Shown: piece after piece, positions 14,664-48,055 of the stretch | How positions within the stretch are numbered: position 1 is the stretch's first letter | How the letters are laid out: each line of letters opens with the position of its first letter | Assembly: GCA_963841915.1 (NCBI GenBank) | Contig: CAWJEN010000006.1 | Location: 1,600,001-1,664,000 of the forward strand | Length of the DNA: 64,000 nucleotides | DNA from: an uncultured Planctomycetota bacterium | Lineage (GTDB): Bacteria; Planctomycetota; Phycisphaerae; Tepidisphaerales; Tepidisphaeraceae | Reading direction: 5' to 3' | Notes under the pieces: generated by a model | The model's database searches: none | What the model was told of the DNA's origin: nothing | What the model saw: the letters and a program-made list of their open reading frames with translations, nothing else | Position numbers and translations under genes: made by a program

Positions 14664-17600
14664 ATGCCAGACGAGTCGCAACCAAAGTCCAAGATACACC
14701 CGTTCAAGACGAAGCGTCATCACTGGACGCGGGCCAAGGAAGTCGCCGCGTCTGAGGCGAACAAGAAGACGCCCAAGTGGCAGCAGGGTTGGGGCGGCTT
14801 CAAGGACAAGAAGGGCCGGGCCAAAGAATTGCTCGAGATCTCGCCACCACCGGCGATCATCAAGGCCGGCAGCGTCGTCACGTTTGCCGAGCTGTGTTGC
14901 ACGAGCAACTTCACGTTTCTGACCGGGGCGAGTCACCCCGACGAGATCGCCCGTCGGGCGGCGGAGCTCGGCTACGACGCGTTCGGCGTGTGCGACACGA
15001 ACACGCTGGCCGGTGTAGTGCGGGCGCACGTCGAGGCCGAACGCCAGGAGATTCGCCAGGTCGTCGGTAGCCGCGTCGAGCTGTCGGACGGTCGTGGCAT
15101 TTATGTCTGGCCGACGAACCTCGCCGCGTACGGCAGGCTCGCCACACTGCTGACCGTCGGCAAGATGCGGGCCAGCAAGGGCGAGTGCTTGCTTGGCCTG
15201 TGGGACTTGCTGGAGTACGCCGAGGGTCAGATGCTCGGCATCGAGGTGCCGACCGTCATCGACAATGGTTTTGTCGCGATGCTCCGCACGCTGCAGGATT
15301 GGTGCGGCGGGACGAACGCGTTGTCGCTGCTGGCTGCGCGCGACTACGGGCCTGATGACGAACAACGGCTGCGCAACATCGCGCGATTGTCGGCAGAAGA
15401 GCACGTGCCGATGCTGGCGACGAATCGGCCGCTTTATCACGTGCGAGGCAGGCGGTTGATGCAGGACGTCGTCTCGTGCATCCGTCGTGGTTGCACGCTC
15501 GACGAAGCAGGCCTGGCCCTCGAAGCGTCGGCCGAGCGGCACATGAAGGTGCCCGAAGAGATGGACCGGCTGTTCTCGCGTTACCCGAACGCGATCGCCC
15601 GCACGATTGAGGTTGCGTCGCGTTGCCGCGAGTTTTCACTGAACCAGCTCAAGTATCAGTACCCCGACGAGGTTGTGCCCGACGGCTCGACGGCAATGGA
15701 GCACCTCGAACAGCTCTCGCGGGCCGGGCTGCAAGGGCGTTTCCCCGACGGCGTGCCGGAGAAGGTGCGCACGCAGTTCGAGCACGAGTTGGTGCTCATC
15801 GGGGAGTTGAAGTTGCCGCACTATTTCCTGACGGTCGAAGACCTTGTGCGGTGGAGTCGCCAGCAGGGCATCTTGTGTCAAGGCCGCGGCGCGGCGGCGA
15901 ACAGCGTCGTCTGCTACTCGCTGGGCGTGACCGACGCCGACCCGACGCGGATCAACACGCTCTTCGAACGGTTCATCAGCCGCGCCCGCAACGAGCCGCC
16001 GGACATCGATGTCGACTTCGAACACGAACGACGCGAAGAGGCGATTCAGTACCTTTACCGCAAGTACGGCCGTGACCGGGCGGCGATGACGGCCAACGTC
16101 ATCACCTACCGCGGCAGAAGCGCCGTCCGCGAGGTTGGCAAAGTCCTCGGCTTCGGCGCCGACACCATCGACCGCCTCGCCAAAGGTATCAACTGGTGGA
16201 AAGGCGGCCCGGTCGAAGAAGACGAACTCGCCGCCCAGAAGCTCGACCACGCCGACGTTGCTACCGGGCACCTCGTCTACCTCTCGCAGGCCATCCAGGG
16301 ATTTCCCCGACACCTCAGCCAACACCCTGGCGGCTTCGTGCTGACACAAACGCCGCTGCATCAGCTCGTGCCAATCGAGAACTGCGCGATGGAAGCCCGC
16401 ACCGCCATCGAGTGGGATAAAGACGACATCGACGCCCTTGGCTTCATCAAAGTCGACGTGCTGGGGCTTGGCATGCTGACGTGTATGGCCAAGGGGTTTG
16501 AGCTATTAAAAGGCACAAAGGCACAAAGGCACGAAGGCACGAAGGGCTTGACTTCGGACACTCATGAGCGAGATCAAGACATATCGAGATCTGGTGGCGT
16601 GGCAGAGAGCTATGCAGTTGTGTCAGGCGCTTTATTGACAGACGAAGGCAATGCCGGCCGAAGAGCGTTTTGGGCTGACGAATCAGATGAGGCGTGCGGC
16701 CGTATTGATTCCGTCGAACATCGCAGAAGGATTCGGCAGGCAGAGCCGCGCCGACCACTTGAAGTTCCTGAAGATCGCACGCGGATCGTTGATGGAGCTT
16801 CAGACGCAGTACGAACTGGCGTGGTCGATGGAGATGATCCCCCGGAACGAGGAGCTGCATACATTGCTGATCGAGAGCGACCGCATTCTGCAGGGTCTCA
16901 TTCGCAGCCTGATGCGTTAGCTCCGGCATCTGCCCCTTCGTGCCCTCGTGCCTTTGTGCCTTCGTGCCTAGCCGAGGTGCTTCAGCCGCCGGACGATCCT
17001 GTGGTCTTCGACATGATTTGTCGGGCCGACACGATGGGGACGTTTCAGATCGAAAGCCGGGCGCAGATGACGATGTTGCCGAGGTTGCGGCCGCGGTGCT
17101 TTTATGACCTGGTGGTCGAGGTTGCCATCGTGCGGCCCGGGCCGATTCAGGGTGGCATGGTCCACCCCTATCTCAAGCGGCGCAGCGGCGAAGAGCCGGT
17201 GCCGGACTTTTCTGACGGGCCGCTCGGGTGGATTCTGGCCAAGACGTTCGGCGTGCCGATTTTCCAGGAGCAGGCGATGCTGATGGCCGTCCACTGCGCG
17301 GGCTTTTCACCCGACGAGGCCGACGGCCTCAGGCGTGCGGTCACCGGCTTCCGCCGCTTCGGCGACATCGACGACTACGAGTCGAAGATTGTCGAGGGCA
17401 TGGTAGAGAACGGCTACGAGCGTGACTTTGCCGAGCGGTGCTTCAAGCAAATTCAGGGGTTTTCAACCTACGGATTTCCGGAGAGCCACGCTGCCAGCTT
17501 CGCGCTGATCGCGTACGCGAGCAACTACTTCAAGTGCCACTGGCCGGGCGTCTTTCTGGCGGCCATTCTCAACAGTCAGCCGATGGGCTTTTATAAACCG

Positions 17601-18416
17601 GCCCAACTCGTGCAGTGCGCCCAACGGCACGGCGTGACCGTGCTGCCGGTCGACGTGATGCACAGTGACTGGGATTGCACGCTGCCACCGACGCAGGATC
17701 ACATGACGGTCCGGCTCGGGATGAGATGCGTCAAAGGAATGAGGCAGGACGACGCCCAGCGCATCATCGCCGCACGCGGCAAGGGCGTTGTCAGCATCGA
17801 GCAACTTTGGCACCAAAGCCGCTGCTCGGCGAGGGCGATGAAGTGTCTGGCCAAAGCCGACGCCTTCGGCTCGCTCAACGGCGGCCTCGATCGACAGTCG
17901 GCGCTGTGGCACGTGGGTAAACTCCGTGACGACGACACGCCGTTGTTCGATCACGTGCACGAGCCCGAGCCCGTCGTCGCGCTGCCGACGCTCGCGCCGC
18001 TTCGGCATGTATTGGCCGATTACACGCACACAGGTCTGTCGCTCAAGGACCACCCGATGCGATTGCTTCGTGGCGAGCTGCCGGGCGTGACGGTGGCGGG
18101 TGACCTGGCCGACGAGGAGCGGTTTCCGTCCGGTCGGAACGTGACGGTGGCCGGCATCTGCCTCGTCCGCCAAAGGCCCGGCAGCGCCAAGAGCATCACG
18201 TTCCTCACGCTCGAGGACGAGACAGGCATGAGCAACCTGGTCGTTTACCCTAATATCTTCGACCGATGGAAGCGCATCGCCCGCGACAGCCGCACCATGC
18301 TCGTCCGCGGCCGCGTTGATCGGCAGGGCGAAGTCGTGCACGTCATCGCGACGACCTTCGAGTGCCTCGACGGCAAGCTCGACGCGTTGCGTGGCATGTC
18401 GCGAAACTTCCACTAG
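14664..18416 (+). CDS. dnaE2: Error-prone DNA polymerase DnaE2 (ImuC) with a 153-codon in-frame insertion
   Basis: FAELCCTSNFTFLTGASHP, GRGAAANSVVCY, PPDIDVDFEH, FPRHLSQHPGG, FQIESRAQM, YGFPESHAASFA, RQRPGSAK and the DnaE2-typical SRNFH C-terminus; start uncertain. Confidence 0.95.
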   Translation: MPDESQPKSKIHPFKTKRHHWTRAKEVAASEANKKTPKWQQGWGGFKDKKGRAKELLEISPPPAIIKAGSVVTFAELCCTSNFTFLTGASHPDEIARRAAELGYDAFGVCDTNTLAGVVRAHVEAERQEIRQVVGSRVELSDGRGIYVWPTNLAAYGRLATLLTVGKMRASKGECLLGLWDLLEYAEGQMLGIEVPTVIDNGFVAMLRTLQDWCGGTNALSLLAARDYGPDDEQRLRNIARLSAEEHVPMLATNRPLYHVRGRRLMQDVVSCIRRGCTLDEAGLALEASAERHMKVPEEMDRLFSRYPNAIARTIEVASRCREFSLNQLKYQYPDEVVPDGSTAMEHLEQLSRAGLQGRFPDGVPEKVRTQFEHELVLIGELKLPHYFLTVEDLVRWSRQQGILCQGRGAAANSVVCYSLGVTDADPTRINTLFERFISRARNEPPDIDVDFEHERREEAIQYLYRKYGRDRAAMTANVITYRGRSAVREVGKVLGFGADTIDRLAKGINWWKGGPVEEDELAAQKLDHADVATGHLVYLSQAIQGFPRHLSQHPGGFVLTQTPLHQLVPIENCAMEARTAIEWDKDDIDALGFIKVDVLGLGMLTCMAKGFELLKGTKAQRHEGTKGLTSDTHERDQDISRSGGVAESYAVVSGALLTDEGNAGRRAFWADESDEACGRIDSVEHRRRIRQAEPRRPLEVPEDRTRIVDGASDAVRTGVVDGDDPPERGAAYIADRERPHSAGSHSQPDALAPASAPSCPRAFVPSCLAEVLQPPDDPVVFDMICRADTMGTFQIESRAQMTMLPRLRPRCFYDLVVEVAIVRPGPIQGGMVHPYLKRRSGEEPVPDFSDGPLGWILAKTFGVPIFQEQAMLMAVHCAGFSPDEADGLRRAVTGFRRFGDIDDYESKIVEGMVENGYERDFAERCFKQIQGFSTYGFPESHAASFALIAYASNYFKCHWPGVFLAAILNSQPMGFYKPAQLVQCAQRHGVTVLPVDVMHSDWDCTLPPTQDHMTVRLGMRCVKGMRQDDAQRIIAARGKGVVSIEQLWHQSRCSARAMKCLAKADAFGSLNGGLDRQSALWHVGKLRDDDTPLFDHVHEPEPVVALPTLAPLRHVLADYTHTGLSLKDHPMRLLRGELPGVTVAGDLADEERFPSGRNVTVAGICLVRQRPGSAKSITFLTLEDETGMSNLVVYPNIFDRWKRIARDSRTMLVRGRVDRQGEVVHVIATTFECLDGKLDALRGMSRNFH
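16511..16546 (+). repeat. Left octamer array (AGGCACRA)x4 + AGGG
   Basis: AGGCACAA AGGCACAA AGGCACGA AGGCACGA AGGG read directly. Confidence 0.95.
16564..16920 (+). pseudogene. Four-helix-bundle protein (TIGR02436 / 23S rRNA IVS protein family) nested in dnaE2 in another frame, with an internal TGA
   Basis: MSEIKTYRDLVAWQRAMQLCQALY*QTKAMPAEERFGLTNQMRRAAVLIPSNIAEGFGR...FLKIARGSLMELQTQ; TGA at 16636-16638. Confidence 0.9.
16934..16969 (+). repeat. Right octamer array CCCT + (TYGTGCCY)x4, inverted relative to the left array
   Basis: CCCT TCGTGCCC TCGTGCCT TTGTGCCT TCGTGCCT read directly. Confidence 0.95.
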
Positions 18417-18472
18417 CGGCTCTGACGCAAGAAGTTGCTGCCGCTCGGGCGGGCGCGGTACAACCCCAAGCG

Positions 18473-20284
18473 ATGCGGGACTCGGGGAAGATCAAGGTCT
18501 ACACGACGATGGCCGCAACGGTGTGCGCGTTGACCGCGCTGCCGCTCGGCGTGCTGGGCTACGTCGCGGCCGGTGAGTCGTTGCTCAACGGCTTCTACAT
18601 GACGCTGCAGTTCTTCGCCCTGGGCGATCCTTACCCGGACGCGGCCAAGAACTTCATGCTCCACGTCGCCCGCCTGCTGGCCGCGGCGGCGGTGTCGCTG
18701 GCGGTGGTCATGACGGTGATGTCGCTTTGTGCCGACGTCTCACGACGATACTTTGCCCAAAGCTGGCGCAACCACGACATCGTCTGCGGCCTTGGAAATC
18801 GGGGCATCAACCTTGTGCACCAACTCGCCGCGACGCATCAGTGCGAGAGTGTCAAGGACCGCATCAAGGCCGCGATGTGGGGCGACCGCGCCATCGTCGC
18901 CATCGAACGCAACGAGCAGAACCCGCACCTCCAGACGGCGAGGCGGGCGGGCGCATTGGTCATCGTCGGCGATGCGACCAACCCCAATGTGCTCCACGAC
19001 GCGGCCGTGCGATCCGCGGCTCGGCTGTTCTCGTGTTGCGGCAAGGACGACGACACCGACGTCGCCGTCACCCTGGCGGCGGTGGACGAGGCGGCGAAGT
19101 CGACGCGTACCAAGCAGCTTCACATCTGCCCGGAGATCAACGATCCGACCATCCGCACGCTCATTCGGCAGTACGCCGCCCGGCAGAAACACGAAGGGCG
19201 TTCGGTGCTCGTGCACCCTTTCGACAACAACGAGCTCTCTGCTCGACGCCTGCTCGCCGACTACCCGCTCGACCATGATCGACAGCTCGGCCTTACATCG
19301 TTCAAGCACGCCCAGCTCGTCATCATCGGATTCGGCCCGCTCGGTCAGGCGGTGCTGTTGCAGGCGATGCACGTGGGGCACTTTGCCAATCGCAGTGTGT
19401 TGCGCGTCACGCTGATCGATCCGGACATTGACACACTGTATCGCCGATTTGTGGCGGCCCATCCGAACCTCGGCCGCAGAGGGTTGCAACGGCCCGCACG
19501 CATCCGCCGCCGTGGCATGCACCCGCTGGACCCGCGGCTGTGCATGTTTCTCAACGACATCGCCGACAATCCCGAAGCAGTCGTAACCGTTGTCGTGTGC
19601 CTCGGCGTCGCAACAGAGGCGGTCCGACTGGTCGACCAGACTCGTCGTGCCACTGCGGCGGACAACGTCAGGTTGCTCGTCCGCGTTCCGAACAATCGTG
19701 GGTTCGGCCGCTTGCTTCACCCCGAAAGCGAGGCGAATCGTGAGGTGGACGGCGTCGCCTTTCCAAACGTGTACGACTTCAGCCCGGCCACTGACATCGA
19801 TCCCGCGGCCATTCGCGACGAGCATCATGACAAGCTGGCCCAGGCGATTCACCACGCATATCGCACCAGGACCACATTCGGCGAGAACCTACCCGATGCA
19901 AAGCCGCAGCAGCGGCCTTGGAACGAGCTCGACGAGATCTTTCGCATTTCCAATCGGGCGGCGGCTGACTTTGTGCCGTTACTCTGGCGGACGTTCGGCT
20001 TTGAGATCATCGCCGCAAAGTCTGCGGATCAAAGAAATCGGGTGAAGGAGGTGCCGTCGCACTTGCACGAGGTCATGGCCCAGCTCGAACACGAGCGCTG
20101 GTGCAGCGAGCGGTTCTTGTCCGGCTGGCAGCGCGACGCGGTTCGCGACGACTCGCGTCGGCGGCATCCGGATCTGGTCCCGTGGGCCACGCTCGACGCA
20201 GCGTCGAAGCAGCACAATCGGGACCAAGTCAGCTCGCACGTCACCATTCTCAGCCAGATCGGCTATGTCGTCCTCCCAGCCTGA
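18473..20284 (+). CDS. Membrane protein with TrkA-N/RCK-like NAD-binding domains and a C-terminal RyR domain
   Basis: N-terminal TM segments around FYMTLQFFALG; IVCGLGNRG and LVIIGFGPLG Rossmann motifs; RyR-type LAQAIHHAY...PWNEL and MAQLEHERW...GW...RDDSRRRHPDLVPWATL. Confidence 0.8.
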   Translation: MRDSGKIKVYTTMAATVCALTALPLGVLGYVAAGESLLNGFYMTLQFFALGDPYPDAAKNFMLHVARLLAAAAVSLAVVMTVMSLCADVSRRYFAQSWRNHDIVCGLGNRGINLVHQLAATHQCESVKDRIKAAMWGDRAIVAIERNEQNPHLQTARRAGALVIVGDATNPNVLHDAAVRSAARLFSCCGKDDDTDVAVTLAAVDEAAKSTRTKQLHICPEINDPTIRTLIRQYAARQKHEGRSVLVHPFDNNELSARRLLADYPLDHDRQLGLTSFKHAQLVIIGFGPLGQAVLLQAMHVGHFANRSVLRVTLIDPDIDTLYRRFVAAHPNLGRRGLQRPARIRRRGMHPLDPRLCMFLNDIADNPEAVVTVVVCLGVATEAVRLVDQTRRATAADNVRLLVRVPNNRGFGRLLHPESEANREVDGVAFPNVYDFSPATDIDPAAIRDEHHDKLAQAIHHAYRTRTTFGENLPDAKPQQRPWNELDEIFRISNRAAADFVPLLWRTFGFEIIAAKSADQRNRVKEVPSHLHEVMAQLEHERWCSERFLSGWQRDAVRDDSRRRHPDLVPWATLDAASKQHNRDQVSSHVTILSQIGYVVLPA

Positions 20285-20296
20285 TCGGAGACTTCC

Positions 20297-21190
20297 TTGA
20301 GCACAGCGATAGACGAAGTGGCTCGACAAGCCGCCTCCGAAGAAGCCAGGCAGGCCCTCATCAACGGGCAGCCGTACGAGGCGTTGTCGGCAATCTGCCG
20401 GGCCATCCGGCTGACGCCGCGAACGGCCCAAGGCGACGACGTCCTAGCAAGCAAAGTTGCGGCATTGAAACATTTCGCCGAGATACACCCGCAGACGCAA
20501 GGGACCATCTGGTGTCAGTGGGTCTTGACACTCGCCATTGCCGTACGCCGACTCAGCGACGGGGCGACGGACGTACCCGCCGACGTGAAGGTGCTCGCCG
20601 GCAAGCGTGTGACCGGCCCGATCATGTTTGTGGCTGGCGGTTGCGAGGATGCGCATTCTGTTGAGTGGGCACGCCTCGTCGATCTGCTCGATGGTGCGCT
20701 AGGCGACGTTGAACGCACGCTTGTGTCCGGCGGCACGAGGTCGGGCGTGAGCCAACTTGTAGGCGATCTAATCGAGCGACGCCCGCACTGCCGCCGTGGC
20801 ATGTGCTGGCTGCCGGACGAGATGCCTTCGGACGTGAGTATCGATGAGCGGTACGAGGACCGCCGGGTCAGCGAGGTCGGTGACGGTGCGTCGGGCTTTA
20901 CACCTGCCGAGCCGCTGCGATCTTGGATGACGGTGCTCGCCTCGGGAATTGCGCCGGCCGATGTGGTGCTGCTCGGCATCAACGGTGGTCGCATCTCTGG
21001 CTTCGAATACGAGCTGGCTGCCACGCTTGGCGCTCGCGTCGGACTGCTGCATCCGACGGGTCGCGCGGTGGACGCGCTGCACGCGCAGCGTCATCGCCTT
21101 GAGCAGCCGAGTGTGGAGTTTCTTCCGCTCGAACAGGCTCGAATCGCCGCCTTCGTCTCGCGTGATCAATTCGGAGTCGAGGCATCGTGA
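20297..21190 (+). CDS. SLOG-domain protein (TRPM/LSDAT-like) with helical N-terminus
   Basis: IMFVAGG, LVSGGTRSGVSQLVG, LGINGGRIS and TGRAVDAL resemble TRPM/LSDAT SLOG motifs (GGTxxGV, NGG, SGRxAD). Confidence 0.65.
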   Translation: MSTAIDEVARQAASEEARQALINGQPYEALSAICRAIRLTPRTAQGDDVLASKVAALKHFAEIHPQTQGTIWCQWVLTLAIAVRRLSDGATDVPADVKVLAGKRVTGPIMFVAGGCEDAHSVEWARLVDLLDGALGDVERTLVSGGTRSGVSQLVGDLIERRPHCRRGMCWLPDEMPSDVSIDERYEDRRVSEVGDGASGFTPAEPLRSWMTVLASGIAPADVVLLGINGGRISGFEYELAATLGARVGLLHPTGRAVDALHAQRHRLEQPSVEFLPLEQARIAAFVSRDQFGVEAS

Positions 21191-22269
21191 AGCGCATCAT
21201 CAGCATCGACGGCGGTGGCATTCGCGGCGTCTTTTCGCTGCAGATTCTGAAGCGCATCGAGCTGCTTTATCGAGAGCGACACGCCAAAGCCGATCTCGTG
21301 TTGGCGGACGTCATCGACTTCTTCGCCGGGACCAGCACCGGCGCGATTGTCGCGACATGTTTGAGTTGGGGCATGTCAGTCGACGAGGTCGAGCGGCTGT
21401 ATGTTGAAGAGGGCGGGCGCATGTTTTCAAGAGCCGGCGTGCTGGAGCGGTGGTGGTCAAAGTACCGGCCGCACGCGTTGGCGGACATGTTTCGTGAGCT
21501 GTTCCTGGAAGATGACGGTGCACCCGCTGATCTTGGCAGCGGCAAGCTGCGGACGCGACTGCTCGTCGTGATGCGAAACGCGACGACCGGTTCGCCCTGG
21601 CCGATCACGAACAATCCGGAGGCGTTGTTCAACGACGAGTCGCTGGCCGACTGCAACTTGCGGATCCCAATCTGGCAGTTGCTTCGGGGCAGCACTGCGG
21701 CACCGACTTACTTCGAACCCGAGCGCATCGTGCTCGGCAGTCAATGCTTCCTCTTCGTCGACGGCGGCGTGACGCCTTACAACAACCCGGCGATGCTGGC
21801 AGTCCTGAAGGCGACGCTGCCTTGCTACCGGATGAACTGGCCGACCGGCGTCGACAAGCTGCACGTGACCTCCGTCGGCACCGGGAGCTTTCGCAGCGTG
21901 CTCGGGAAAACCCGCGCCAGCCGCCTGCGACGCATCGGCCTTTTGGACCAGCTCAAAGTTCTTCCCAACGCGTTGCTCGGATCGGTCTCTGACCAGCAGG
22001 ACCTGATGTGCCGCGTCATGGGTAACTGCATCCACGGGCACCCGATTGACAGTGAGATCGGCGACCAAATCGAGCGAAGCGACGACGCGCCAACACGCAA
22101 GCAATTCACGTACGTCCGCTACAACCGGCGTCTTGATGTTGTAGACGCGACAACGACGCTGCCGCCGTTGCTCGACGCGACGCTCGATAACCTGGCCCTC
22201 ATTCCGCGGCTGATGGAACTCGGCCACGCGTACGCAGAAGCGTCGGTCGAGGAACGGCATCTGCTGTGA
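21187..22269 (+). CDS. Patatin-like phospholipase
   Basis: SIDGGGIRG, AGTSTG (catalytic Ser), STAAPTYF, FVDGG (catalytic Asp); 4-bp overlap with the upstream gene. Confidence 0.92.
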   Translation: MKRIISIDGGGIRGVFSLQILKRIELLYRERHAKADLVLADVIDFFAGTSTGAIVATCLSWGMSVDEVERLYVEEGGRMFSRAGVLERWWSKYRPHALADMFRELFLEDDGAPADLGSGKLRTRLLVVMRNATTGSPWPITNNPEALFNDESLADCNLRIPIWQLLRGSTAAPTYFEPERIVLGSQCFLFVDGGVTPYNNPAMLAVLKATLPCYRMNWPTGVDKLHVTSVGTGSFRSVLGKTRASRLRRIGLLDQLKVLPNALLGSVSDQQDLMCRVMGNCIHGHPIDSEIGDQIERSDDAPTRKQFTYVRYNRRLDVVDATTTLPPLLDATLDNLALIPRLMELGHAYAEASVEERHLL

Positions 22270-22275
22270 GCCAAC

Positions 22276-23613
22276 TCACTGCATGGCGGGATCGGGGCGG
22301 AAGCCGACGAGCTTCATGCTGCGCTGCAGGTCGGGGTCCTGCATGCTCGTTCGCCAGACGGCACCATCGCGGTGGTTCTCGATCATGAGCATTGTGATGC
22401 CGACGTCGATGCCGATGACGTCGGGTGCGACCCAGCCCTTGGCGTCGTCAGGCCCGAGCGTCGGGTCCGGGTAGAAGGAGTCGACGAAGCCGTAGTGCTG
22501 CCAGATGGTGTCGCCGTACTGGTCGTACATTGCCCGGATGGCGGCGGTGCACTCTTCAGGTGCGAAGACGATCGAGCCTGTCGACGCACAAGGTGTGAGC
22601 AGGCCGTCGATCTTGTCGATGAGTGCCGGCCCGCCCATCCAGCCGCGGTAGCCCTCTGGGCCGTCGCACGACGTCAGGCCCCAGATGTTCTCGCCCCAAC
22701 CAGGGAACCGGTCGGCGTAGTCGATGCACATCTGCCGCTGGGCCAGTGTGGCAATTCGCGAGTTCTCAAAGTAGTTGATGTAGTCGTCCCGCTTGTCGCG
22801 CAGGTCGAGCCACGCCATCGCGTACTGGTGCGTGAACAGTGCGTGACACTGCAGGTAGGTGTAGTCGCCGTAGGTGATGTTCGGCTCGCGACTGAACGCG
22901 TCCCACGCCTCGGGCGGCAGCGGGTGGGTCGGCGAGCCGATCGCCATCAGCAGCATGTGCTTTAACTCGGAATAGTGGTCCCAGCGATACTCGATAAAGC
23001 CAGTCTCCGGCCGCCAACCCATCGTCAGCGTCGCCTCGCCGTTGGTCATCCAGGGCCAGTCGATACGCTCGTAAATCTTCGTTGCAAGCTCGTCTATCTC
23101 GGCGTCATCGAAGTACGCCCGCGTGTGCAGTACGCCCGCCAGCAGCAGGGCCGTGTCGATGCTGGACAATTCGCAATCCCAAACGCGTTCGCCGGTGTTG
23201 CTGTCGACGAAATGGTAGAAGAAACCCTTTACGTGCGGCAGGTCGTTGTAGATAAATCGCAGCGTCTTGAGCACGCGATCGCGAGCCTGATCTTCTTCGA
23301 GCCAGCCACGTTCGTCGGCGACGCACAAGGCAGTGAGGCCGAATCCCGTCGACGCAATGGAGGCGACATCGTATCGCGTCGAGCCGTCCGCGCGAGCGCG
23401 GTCGGCGACAAGGCCGGTCCGCTCATTGGCCTGCTCCCAAAAGAACTTAAATGACCGCTTCGACAGCTCGTTGAGCAGAGCCGCGTCCGACTGCAGCGCC
23501 GCTTCGACGGCTGCCTGCTGCTGCTGCGGCTGCGGCAGTGGCTCGGCGGTGGTCTGGCAACCGCTAAGGGCAATGCCGAGGACGAGCCAAATCGGGTAAA
23601 AGTACTTGTTCAT
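22276..23613 (-). CDS. Glucoamylase-like/GH144 (endo-beta-1,2-glucanase-type) lipoprotein
   Basis: Lipobox LSGC; FKFFWEQAN..TGLVADR, ASIASTGFGL, GFFYHF, ELSSIDTALL, YGFVDSF, IGIDVG. Confidence 0.8.
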   Translation of the reverse strand: MNKYFYPIWLVLGIALSGCQTTAEPLPQPQQQQAAVEAALQSDAALLNELSKRSFKFFWEQANERTGLVADRARADGSTRYDVASIASTGFGLTALCVADERGWLEEDQARDRVLKTLRFIYNDLPHVKGFFYHFVDSNTGERVWDCELSSIDTALLLAGVLHTRAYFDDAEIDELATKIYERIDWPWMTNGEATLTMGWRPETGFIEYRWDHYSELKHMLLMAIGSPTHPLPPEAWDAFSREPNITYGDYTYLQCHALFTHQYAMAWLDLRDKRDDYINYFENSRIATLAQRQMCIDYADRFPGWGENIWGLTSCDGPEGYRGWMGGPALIDKIDGLLTPCASTGSIVFAPEECTAAIRAMYDQYGDTIWQHYGFVDSFYPDPTLGPDDAKGWVAPDVIGIDVGITMLMIENHRDGAVWRTSMQDPDLQRSMKLVGFRPDPAMQ

Positions 23614-48011: not shown

Positions 48012-48055
48012 GCCTCCGTGCCTCCGTGCCTCCGTGCCTTCGTGCCTTCGTGCCT
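48012..48055. repeat. Orphan octamer array GCCT + (YCGTGCCT)x5, same family as the dnaE2 insertion ends
   Basis: CCGTGCCT x3 then TCGTGCCT x2 at 48016-48055; 14 bp past the stop of the minus-strand gene. Confidence 0.93.

Follow-up and report, generated by a model that had tools for sequence, protein, structure and literature searches.

The window, a 64,000-nucleotide (nt) stretch from an uncultured Planctomycetota bacterium (Tepidisphaeraceae; GCA_963841915.1, CAWJEN010000006.1:1,600,001-1,664,000; positions below are counted within it), carries behind dnaE2 three genes for a channel-like membrane protein with a RyR module, a SLOG protein and a patatin phospholipase. By sequence comparison the middle gene is a shortened form of a larger RelA/SpoT-TPR-SLOG-RyR protein, a relationship absent from the earlier annotation made on the letters of the DNA (the sequence-only reading). 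We regard as evenly balanced the proposal that the trio derives from the effector side of an as yet undescribed conflict or defence system signalling by nucleotides, a lipase having taken the place of the synthetase, with a ligand, a gating step and a defence role that are presumed.

18473..20284, + strand: gene 1, 603 amino acids (aa) from ATG; two transmembrane (TM) helices, two RCK/Rossmann domains and a RyR Repeat12-like module
20297..21190, + strand: gene 2, 297 aa, TTG start with GGAGA upstream; TPR-like helices and a TRPM-type SLOG domain
21187..22269, + strand: gene 3, 360 aa, GTG start; patatin phospholipase

Gene 2 comprises the last TPR-like helices (residues 1-100) and a TRPM-type SLOG domain (107-290), without the synthetase, most of the TPRs or the RyR domain. 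Its match to the LSDAT_prok profile (PF18171), which represents a prokaryotic SLOG family reportedly treated by Burroughs et al. in 2015, stays below threshold (16.9 bits, cut-off 25.4), and several relatives score above it (33.6 for P0015 and 39.5 for P0029, for example). The structural model (predicted local distance difference test, pLDDT, 93) has four helices followed by a SLOG fold, with TRPM2 and TRPM4 as top Foldseek matches, and VIA-align paired it with TM1055 (Z 17.8, root-mean-square deviation (rmsd) 2.5, 161 residues aligned), TRPM2 (Z 15.7, rmsd 2.9, 189 aligned) and the SLOG domain of ThsA (Z 11.3). The predicted Rossmann-like fold of the SLOG/LOG kind bears out the earlier description of a SLOG-like middle protein by model, Foldseek and VIA-align, the Pfam match being weak. 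The TRPM region that gene 2 matches is an ADP-ribose site, according to the available part of the source.

To place gene 2 we compared it with the best 149 of 786 representative homologues, gene 2 itself excluded. Both Rel and RyR domains were found in 86 of these, Rel only in 11 and RyR only in 20, giving 97 with Rel and 106 with RyR; the remainder divides into 8 long fusions of the STAND type and 24 short proteins, many of the latter probably contig fragments. Gene 2 corresponds to residues ~410-690 of ~840-aa RelA/SpoT-TPR-SLOG-RyR proteins, is 45% identical to P0005, and nests in a quick SLOG-domain tree with P0005, P0006 and P0007 (Shimodaira-Hasegawa-like approximate likelihood ratio test, SH-aLRT, 98), all three of which run on into RyR and two of which start with the synthetase. 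Because gene 2 matches the middle of the ~840-aa proteins and nests with SLOG-RyR proteins, we conclude that its SLOG domain descends from this family and that both ends were lost; the synthetase and the RyR domain were removed at domain borders of the parent. Across 400 genomes of the phylum the 8 other gene 2 matches, in 7 genomes, all lie within frames of 645-1208 aa, and two search patterns found no gene 2 relative on viral contigs. Bare or short SLOG forms recur elsewhere (L049, L052, L073, L074 and L162). A TPR-SLOG tail is also found on the eight STAND NTPases (P0048, P0055, P0102, P0116, P0142, P0144, P0149 and P0150), which have adenylate-cyclase, BTAD, TIR or kinase heads.

The composition of the parent was established from 68 genome loci of the SLOG family, scored with purpose-built profiles; many are cut by contig ends, so that the counts are lower bounds. 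Rel is fused to SLOG at 58 loci and SLOG to RyR at 53, and the neighbours include Nudix (38), TIR or DUF4062 (30), the channel (20), an AAA-RyR protein (14) and patatin (1). The parent is thus a TPR-SLOG-RyR sensor fused to a Rel synthetase, often accompanied by a Nudix, channel, AAA-RyR, TIR or DUF4062 STAND gene. In 54-58 of the 58 parent Rel proteins the four motifs of the synthetase, and HxW, are conserved. At the trio locus there is no fused synthetase, no RyR fused to SLOG and no Nudix neighbour; the part missing from the operon is not the cyclase whose absence had been remarked upon, but a RelA/SpoT-type synthetase and a Nudix gene. The channel accompanies SLOG in about nine phyla (assigned by record title) and stands directly upstream on the same strand, as in the window, at five of its 20 loci. 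Compared with a background of 12 channel-type matches in 400 phylum genomes (15 matched, 3 of these through RyR alone), this linkage is far beyond chance, kin among the loci not being independent. One locus, L018, holds relatives of all three genes together with Rel and Nudix.

Gene 1 begins with a TM-pore-like helix-TM unit (residues ~7-97; hydropathy maxima at 13 and 68), followed by RCK/Rossmann domains at ~100-265 and ~275-440 and RyR at ~445-603. Pfam matches are to TrkA_N (E 3.5e-11) and RyR (PF02026, E 5.5e-15, 55.8 bits against a cut-off of 27.4), and in the model (pLDDT 84) a helix, a short helix and another helix precede a pair of Rossmann domains, with a helical module at the C-terminus. 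Foldseek ranked GsuK first (E 1e-8), then TrkA, RyR3 Repeat12 and CASTOR; hydropathy, Pfam, model and Foldseek agree with the architecture first proposed. For the N-terminal two thirds, channels of the GsuK, MthK and CASTOR type were the best Foldseek and PDB sequence matches, and gene 1 shares their TM-pore helix-TM unit and tandem RCK domains; unlike them it carries an extra C-terminal RyR module and has no TVGYG-type selectivity filter, and the overall template modelling score is ~0.35. Given an RCK-channel build in which none of 23 aligned family members has G[YF]G after the pore helix, the protein is by signature not a K+ channel. Both RCK domains of gene 1 contain GxGxxG, as do those of 17 and 21 of 23 relatives, respectively. 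This architecture occurs widely (Atlas clusters at 0.96-0.97, one with 1090 members) and has a patchy local distribution, with a full-length channel in 2 of 60 relatives and 0 of 4 in the genus, and plasmids gave no gene 1 match at E 1e-15. Word-index searches were nearly blind to these families, returning 5 relatives for gene 1 and itself only for gene 2. Gene 1 may contain a compensated frameshift around 19445-19530, where codon scores favour another frame in two windows but the homologues agree clearly with neither frame.

The C-terminal module of gene 1 belongs, by its PF02026 match and His/Trp/His pocket, to the RyR Repeat12 family, which includes two phage proteins directed at Thoeris signals.

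20090..20218, + strand: RyR pocket of gene 1; H540, W543, R558 and H565 align with H129, W132, K147 and H154 of RyR Tad

The available text on RyR Tad reports that this phage anti-Thoeris protein binds 2'/3' cyclic ADP-ribose (cADPR) with a dissociation constant of 43 nM (10.64898/2026.06.04.730250), and that on RyDEP, another phage anti-Thoeris protein, reports hydrolysis of 2'/3'cADPR through a His-Asp dyad (PMC13232231). Gene 1 keeps four of six RyR Tad pocket residues, and its module is 33% identical to RyR Tad gp68 over 51 residues. The phage modules and that of gene 1 have the same PF02026 build, with His-x2-Trp, Lys/Arg and a second His at equal spacing; gene 1 differs in being host-encoded and fused to a channel, and in having Asn (N582) for the catalytic Asp of RyDEP, so that the RyDEP-type dyad is absent. 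At that position 12 of 17 channel relatives have Asp and 4 have Asn, and the first pocket His is invariant in 17/17 channel, 51/51 SLOG-fused and 10/10 AAA-fused modules. Judged from these residues, the gene 1 pocket looks intact and non-catalytic. The kept pocket residues and a SLOG fold nearest TRPM2 count for a nucleotide ligand, and we consider the RyR pocket a likelier input than ion sensing through RCK; the sequence-only reading had offered ion sensing and gave the RyR pocket no interpretation. The available portion of PMC13232231 describes no channel-fused bacterial RyR forms and mentions none of TrkA, RCK and SLOG.

Gene 3 is an intact patatin (Pfam Patatin E 1.9e-21) with GGGIRG at residues 9-14, GTSTG at 48-52 and DGG at 192-194, as had been noted, and with the predicted catalytic residues Ser50 and Asp192 and the Gly-rich loop in place; it retains 174 of 194 conserved columns and has close relatives at 51-62% identity. 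The PADLOC check that had been recommended gave a match to a phospholipase effector at E 5e-38. The scores of gene 3 lie below the cut-offs for CapV (NF041079, 110.9 bits against 200) and DS-2 (78 bits against 400). We examined the neighbourhoods of the best 80 of 555 metagenome patatin loci, 26 of which had seeded the profiles (neighbour profile names other than Pfam's are working names). A SLOG, SLATT, TPR-S, DRHyd, TIR, DUF4062 or RyR neighbour was present at 65/80, and an adjacent same-strand SLOG, SLATT, TPR-S or DRHyd gene at 46/80; without the seeds these values were 39/54 and 24/54, and in a random control 63 of 5000 windows of the source genome matched the wider profile set. At L162 a bare 196-aa SLOG of the gene 2 family, from a different tree branch, directly precedes a patatin of the gene 3 subfamily, and L094 has the same kind of SLOG-patatin pair. 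L203 combines patatin, Nudix and a Rel protein, and L097 patatin, a solo RyR gene and the channel. Among 300 genomes of the class five have a close patatin, with defence-type neighbours in three and none in two. The overlap of gene 2 with the patatin gene may record an effector swap.

The open reading frames (ORFs) and flanks reproduced the layout originally described: three co-oriented genes, the first two 12 bp apart and the last two overlapping by 4 bp, each with an uninterrupted frame of full length. The last position of dnaE2 is 18416, and the glucoamylase-family gene of the sugar locus, which runs convergently, ends at 22276. The ORF lister extends gene 1 upstream to a GTG at 18362, inside dnaE2.

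18417..18472: spacer, 56 bp after dnaE2; left edge of a variable slot

A scan of 18200-22500 yielded no sigma70-like promoter, so that read-through from dnaE2 may be possible; in the spacer no terminator was found on the + strand. The trio has the same guanine-cytosine (GC) content as its flanks, and each gene is present once in the genome. The content of the slot behind dnaE2 differs among all four sister species compared, with unrelated genes in G001-G003 and, in G004, a complete qatABCD called by PADLOC (G004:C63:3604-8424; L217, L211), convergent and directly 3' of dnaE2, with a capP-like gene near. One Qat system in four sister slots is modest support for a slot that carries defence cargo. 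Together with the neighbours of all three families, it favours the earlier idea of a nucleotide-sensing module coupled to a phospholipase in a defence setting.

The putative mechanism places the trio in this variable slot as the sensor-and-effector end of a signalling system. An adenine nucleotide of the ADP-ribose or cADPR kind would bind the RyR pocket of gene 1, and ligand-bound RyR, acting through the RCK ring, would open a cation pore that is not selective for K+; this ligand or one related to it would bind the SLOG domain, freed of its synthetase, and license the patatin for phospholipid hydrolysis, and the resulting membrane damage would arrest or kill the cell. The signal would arrive in trans, from the one TIR-TM gene of the genome or from NAD breakdown. 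That gene, the single TIR_2 match (C5:566142-567011, L208:11143-12012; 289 aa), has a hydrophobic stretch and stands alone, and is a possible source of the signal. A more specific version, possible but held only tentatively, makes gene 1 a channel opened by a cADPR isomer through its Repeat12 pocket and the host receptor that phage sponges and hydrolases have copied, within a modular immune network where a TIR-like STAND protein makes the signal and SLOG and RyR modules switch on an output that may be a channel, a patatin or an alarmone synthetase; the locus here would be effector-only, with TIR in trans.

In its action such a trio would most resemble the effector half of Thoeris, or a TRPM2 divided into separate proteins. 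As in Thoeris, a SLOG sensor is found with membrane-acting effectors, and TIR-type genes are common around relatives of the trio; unlike type I Thoeris, the locus has no TIR (ThsB) gene and gene 2 has no SIR2, its N-terminal 100 residues being helical TPR-like remnants. We therefore rejected Thoeris type I membership, there being no adjacent TIR gene and no SIR2-SLOG fusion. With TRPM MHR1/2 and the prokaryotic LSDAT proteins gene 2 shares the fold and the pairing of SLOG with a cation channel, as far as the available text of PMC13143021 goes; it differs in scoring below the Pfam cut-off, in lacking a SLATT partner, in having its channel as a separate RCK-type gene, and in coming from a family usually fused to a Rel synthetase and RyR. 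CBASS systems with CapV, and DS-2, likewise have an intact patatin, but gene 3 scores under their cut-offs, has no adjacent cyclase, and belongs to a group with SLOG-SLATT or TPR-S neighbours. PADLOC and NCBIfam gave no CD-NTase cyclase match among the three genes, which are flanked by dnaE2 and the glucoamylase-family gene (a genome-wide CD-NTase search was not made), and CBASS membership was rejected, there being no cyclase gene in the operon and a phospholipase below the CapV cut-off. The statement that the locus is neither canonical CBASS nor Thoeris, based on the missing cyclase and TIR genes, thus holds. In the available portions of the sources, patatin, YspA and LSDAT genes are noted beside TPR proteins (10.1101/2023.05.26.542521), RyR is unmentioned in PMC7159879 and PMC9503650, and the main text of a study of Thoeris types mentions neither the RyR domain nor TrkA nor patatin (10.64898/2025.12.03.692087). 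Neither the channel nor the Rel-TPR-SLOG-RyR family was described in the papers that our literature search, with supplements outside its scope, brought up; Burroughs et al. (2015) and Burroughs and Aravind (2020), or their supplements, may contain such architectures.

Several observations weigh against the effector-side derivative that we propose. The steps that concern ligand, gating and defence are ones that we infer. The pocket His and Trp are general to the RyR family and so do not name a ligand, and K170 and D171, at which the double mutant of RyR Tad binds ~100x more weakly in the available part of 10.64898/2026.06.04.730250, align with H581 and N582 in gene 1. The 94%-complete source genome has no match to RelA_SpoT (PF04607), which 11 of 14 control genomes do match, and none to DUF4062; its only RyR module is that of gene 1, no AAA-RyR protein was found, and the sole TIR gene lies on another contig. 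All three families occur together at just 1 of the 68 SLOG loci, and there with the synthetase, and no second case of the three-gene order was seen among the loci examined; as a unit, the candidate operon is not conserved, and what recurs is its pairs (channel with SLOG at 20/68 loci, patatin with an adjacent sensor-type gene at 46/80). Among 15 channel-centred loci, 11 lack any defence-type profile and none has Rel-SLOG. Retention of conserved columns is also low, at 64/91 for gene 1 (equal lowest, relatives' median 79) and 53/72 for gene 2 (median 61, clade mates 51-58).

These last values bear on whether the trio is a decaying remnant, what is left of a complete Rel/SLOG/RyR system after loss of the synthetase, the Nudix gene and the TIR-STAND genes, with three survivors that no longer cooperate. 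The absence of any signal enzyme at the locus and of Rel and DUF4062 matches genome-wide would fit such decay, as would the length of the gene 2 branch (0.77, the greatest in a clade whose other branches measure 0.40-0.64), the poor codon adaptation of the same gene (1.6th percentile among 1067 ORFs, on a reference biased to high GC at third codon positions), the position of gene 1 as the most divergent of 23 with a D-to-N change in its RyR pocket, the possible short out-of-frame stretch near 19445-19530, and the failure to find the trio in four genus relatives. All three frames nevertheless run open from end to end. The cuts in gene 2 coincide with domain borders, the gene is preceded by a ribosome-binding site, and its end overlaps the start of the patatin gene; the patatin retains most of its conserved columns, and short or bare SLOG forms recur. 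With these in view we find decay doubtful. It is unlikely that gene 1 is instead a metabolic or stress-gated channel that stands alone, nucleotide-gated like GsuK or KtrA, with SLOG-patatin a separate module beside it. Ordinary surroundings at 11 of 15 channel-centred loci, including G023 from the same family as the source, the GxGxxG motifs of both RCK domains and the binding of an ATP analogue and ADP by animal RyR Repeat12 (in the available part of the source) suit an independent channel, but the channel occurs at 20/68 SLOG loci across ~nine phyla, five with order and spacing as here, TIR, DUF4062, SLOG or TPR-S neighbours are found at 4 of the 15 other loci, and of the 7 phylum genomes that have the SLOG family, 3 (two of them from one genus) contain the channel as well, at an unlinked site.

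The kept synthetase motifs of the parents and the rank of Nudix as the commonest neighbour or fusion (38/68) suggest a ligand of another kind, an alarmone made by the parent Rel and removed by Nudix, in which case the copy here would be without input; alternatively, RyR modules might merely pair proteins of the same locus, whose RyR modules share a slightly higher identity (35.5%) than modules of different loci do (33.3%; 12 loci, permutation p 0.002). We judge both very unlikely: those RyR-domain and TRPM-type SLOG proteins that have been characterised have adenine nucleotides or derivatives of ADP-ribose as their ligands, in the available parts of the sources, and TIR or DUF4062 genes stand at 30/68 loci; the identity excess amounts to just two points, the kin compared are not independent, and the first rank is reached in only 3 of 12 cases, so that a pure pairing adaptor was rejected.

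If the trio is an effector-side derivative, its locus is a reduced, one-off arrangement, evidence of effector swapping and a poorer experimental start than the complete loci. Members of the parent family, which occurs in several phyla of bacteria and in some archaea, couple an alarmone synthetase to SLOG/RyR sensing. Two 2026 preprints leave open the cellular role of the RyR domain and whether cADPR acts via animal Repeat12, and a small bacterial channel with a RyR pocket on an RCK ring makes the Repeat12-cADPR question testable with purified protein.

Further features accompany the parent family. The AAA-RyR protein of ~880 aa (L029:6057-8696 and 13 other loci) has an N-terminal domain without Pfam match, an AAA-like NTPase and a C-terminal RyR. 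A sigma54-activator-type gene of ~565 aa occurs at 8 of the 68 SLOG loci (L016, L022, L024, L032, L039, L040, L048 and L068) and a ClpB-like AAA gene at 7. Archaeal members come, by record title, from Bathyarchaeia, Thermoplasmatota and Promethearchaeia (L017, L028, L042, L044, L047, L056 and L067), L017 with an additional KaiC-type domain. Stand-alone RyR genes of ~90-145 aa adjoin the channel or the Rel protein (L014:11077-11364, L054:7655-7933, L199:11113-11421 and L097:2487-2924) and could be host-side signal sponges or erasers. The Rel domain of L203:8009-10750 matches the PADLOC candidate model PDC-S33 over residues 8-177 (E 7e-15).

Upstream of the trio, dnaE2 contains an insertion of ~460 nt (16511-16969) with 36-nt terminal inverted repeats that leaves its frame open and is absent from dnaE2 of G004. 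Read in another frame, the insertion carries at 16564-16920 a gene of the four-helix-bundle type found in 23S rRNA intervening sequences (PF05635, E 1e-25), which contains a single internal TGA. The repeat ends of the insertion recur near 48013-48055 of the window, at C6:380216 and in G003.

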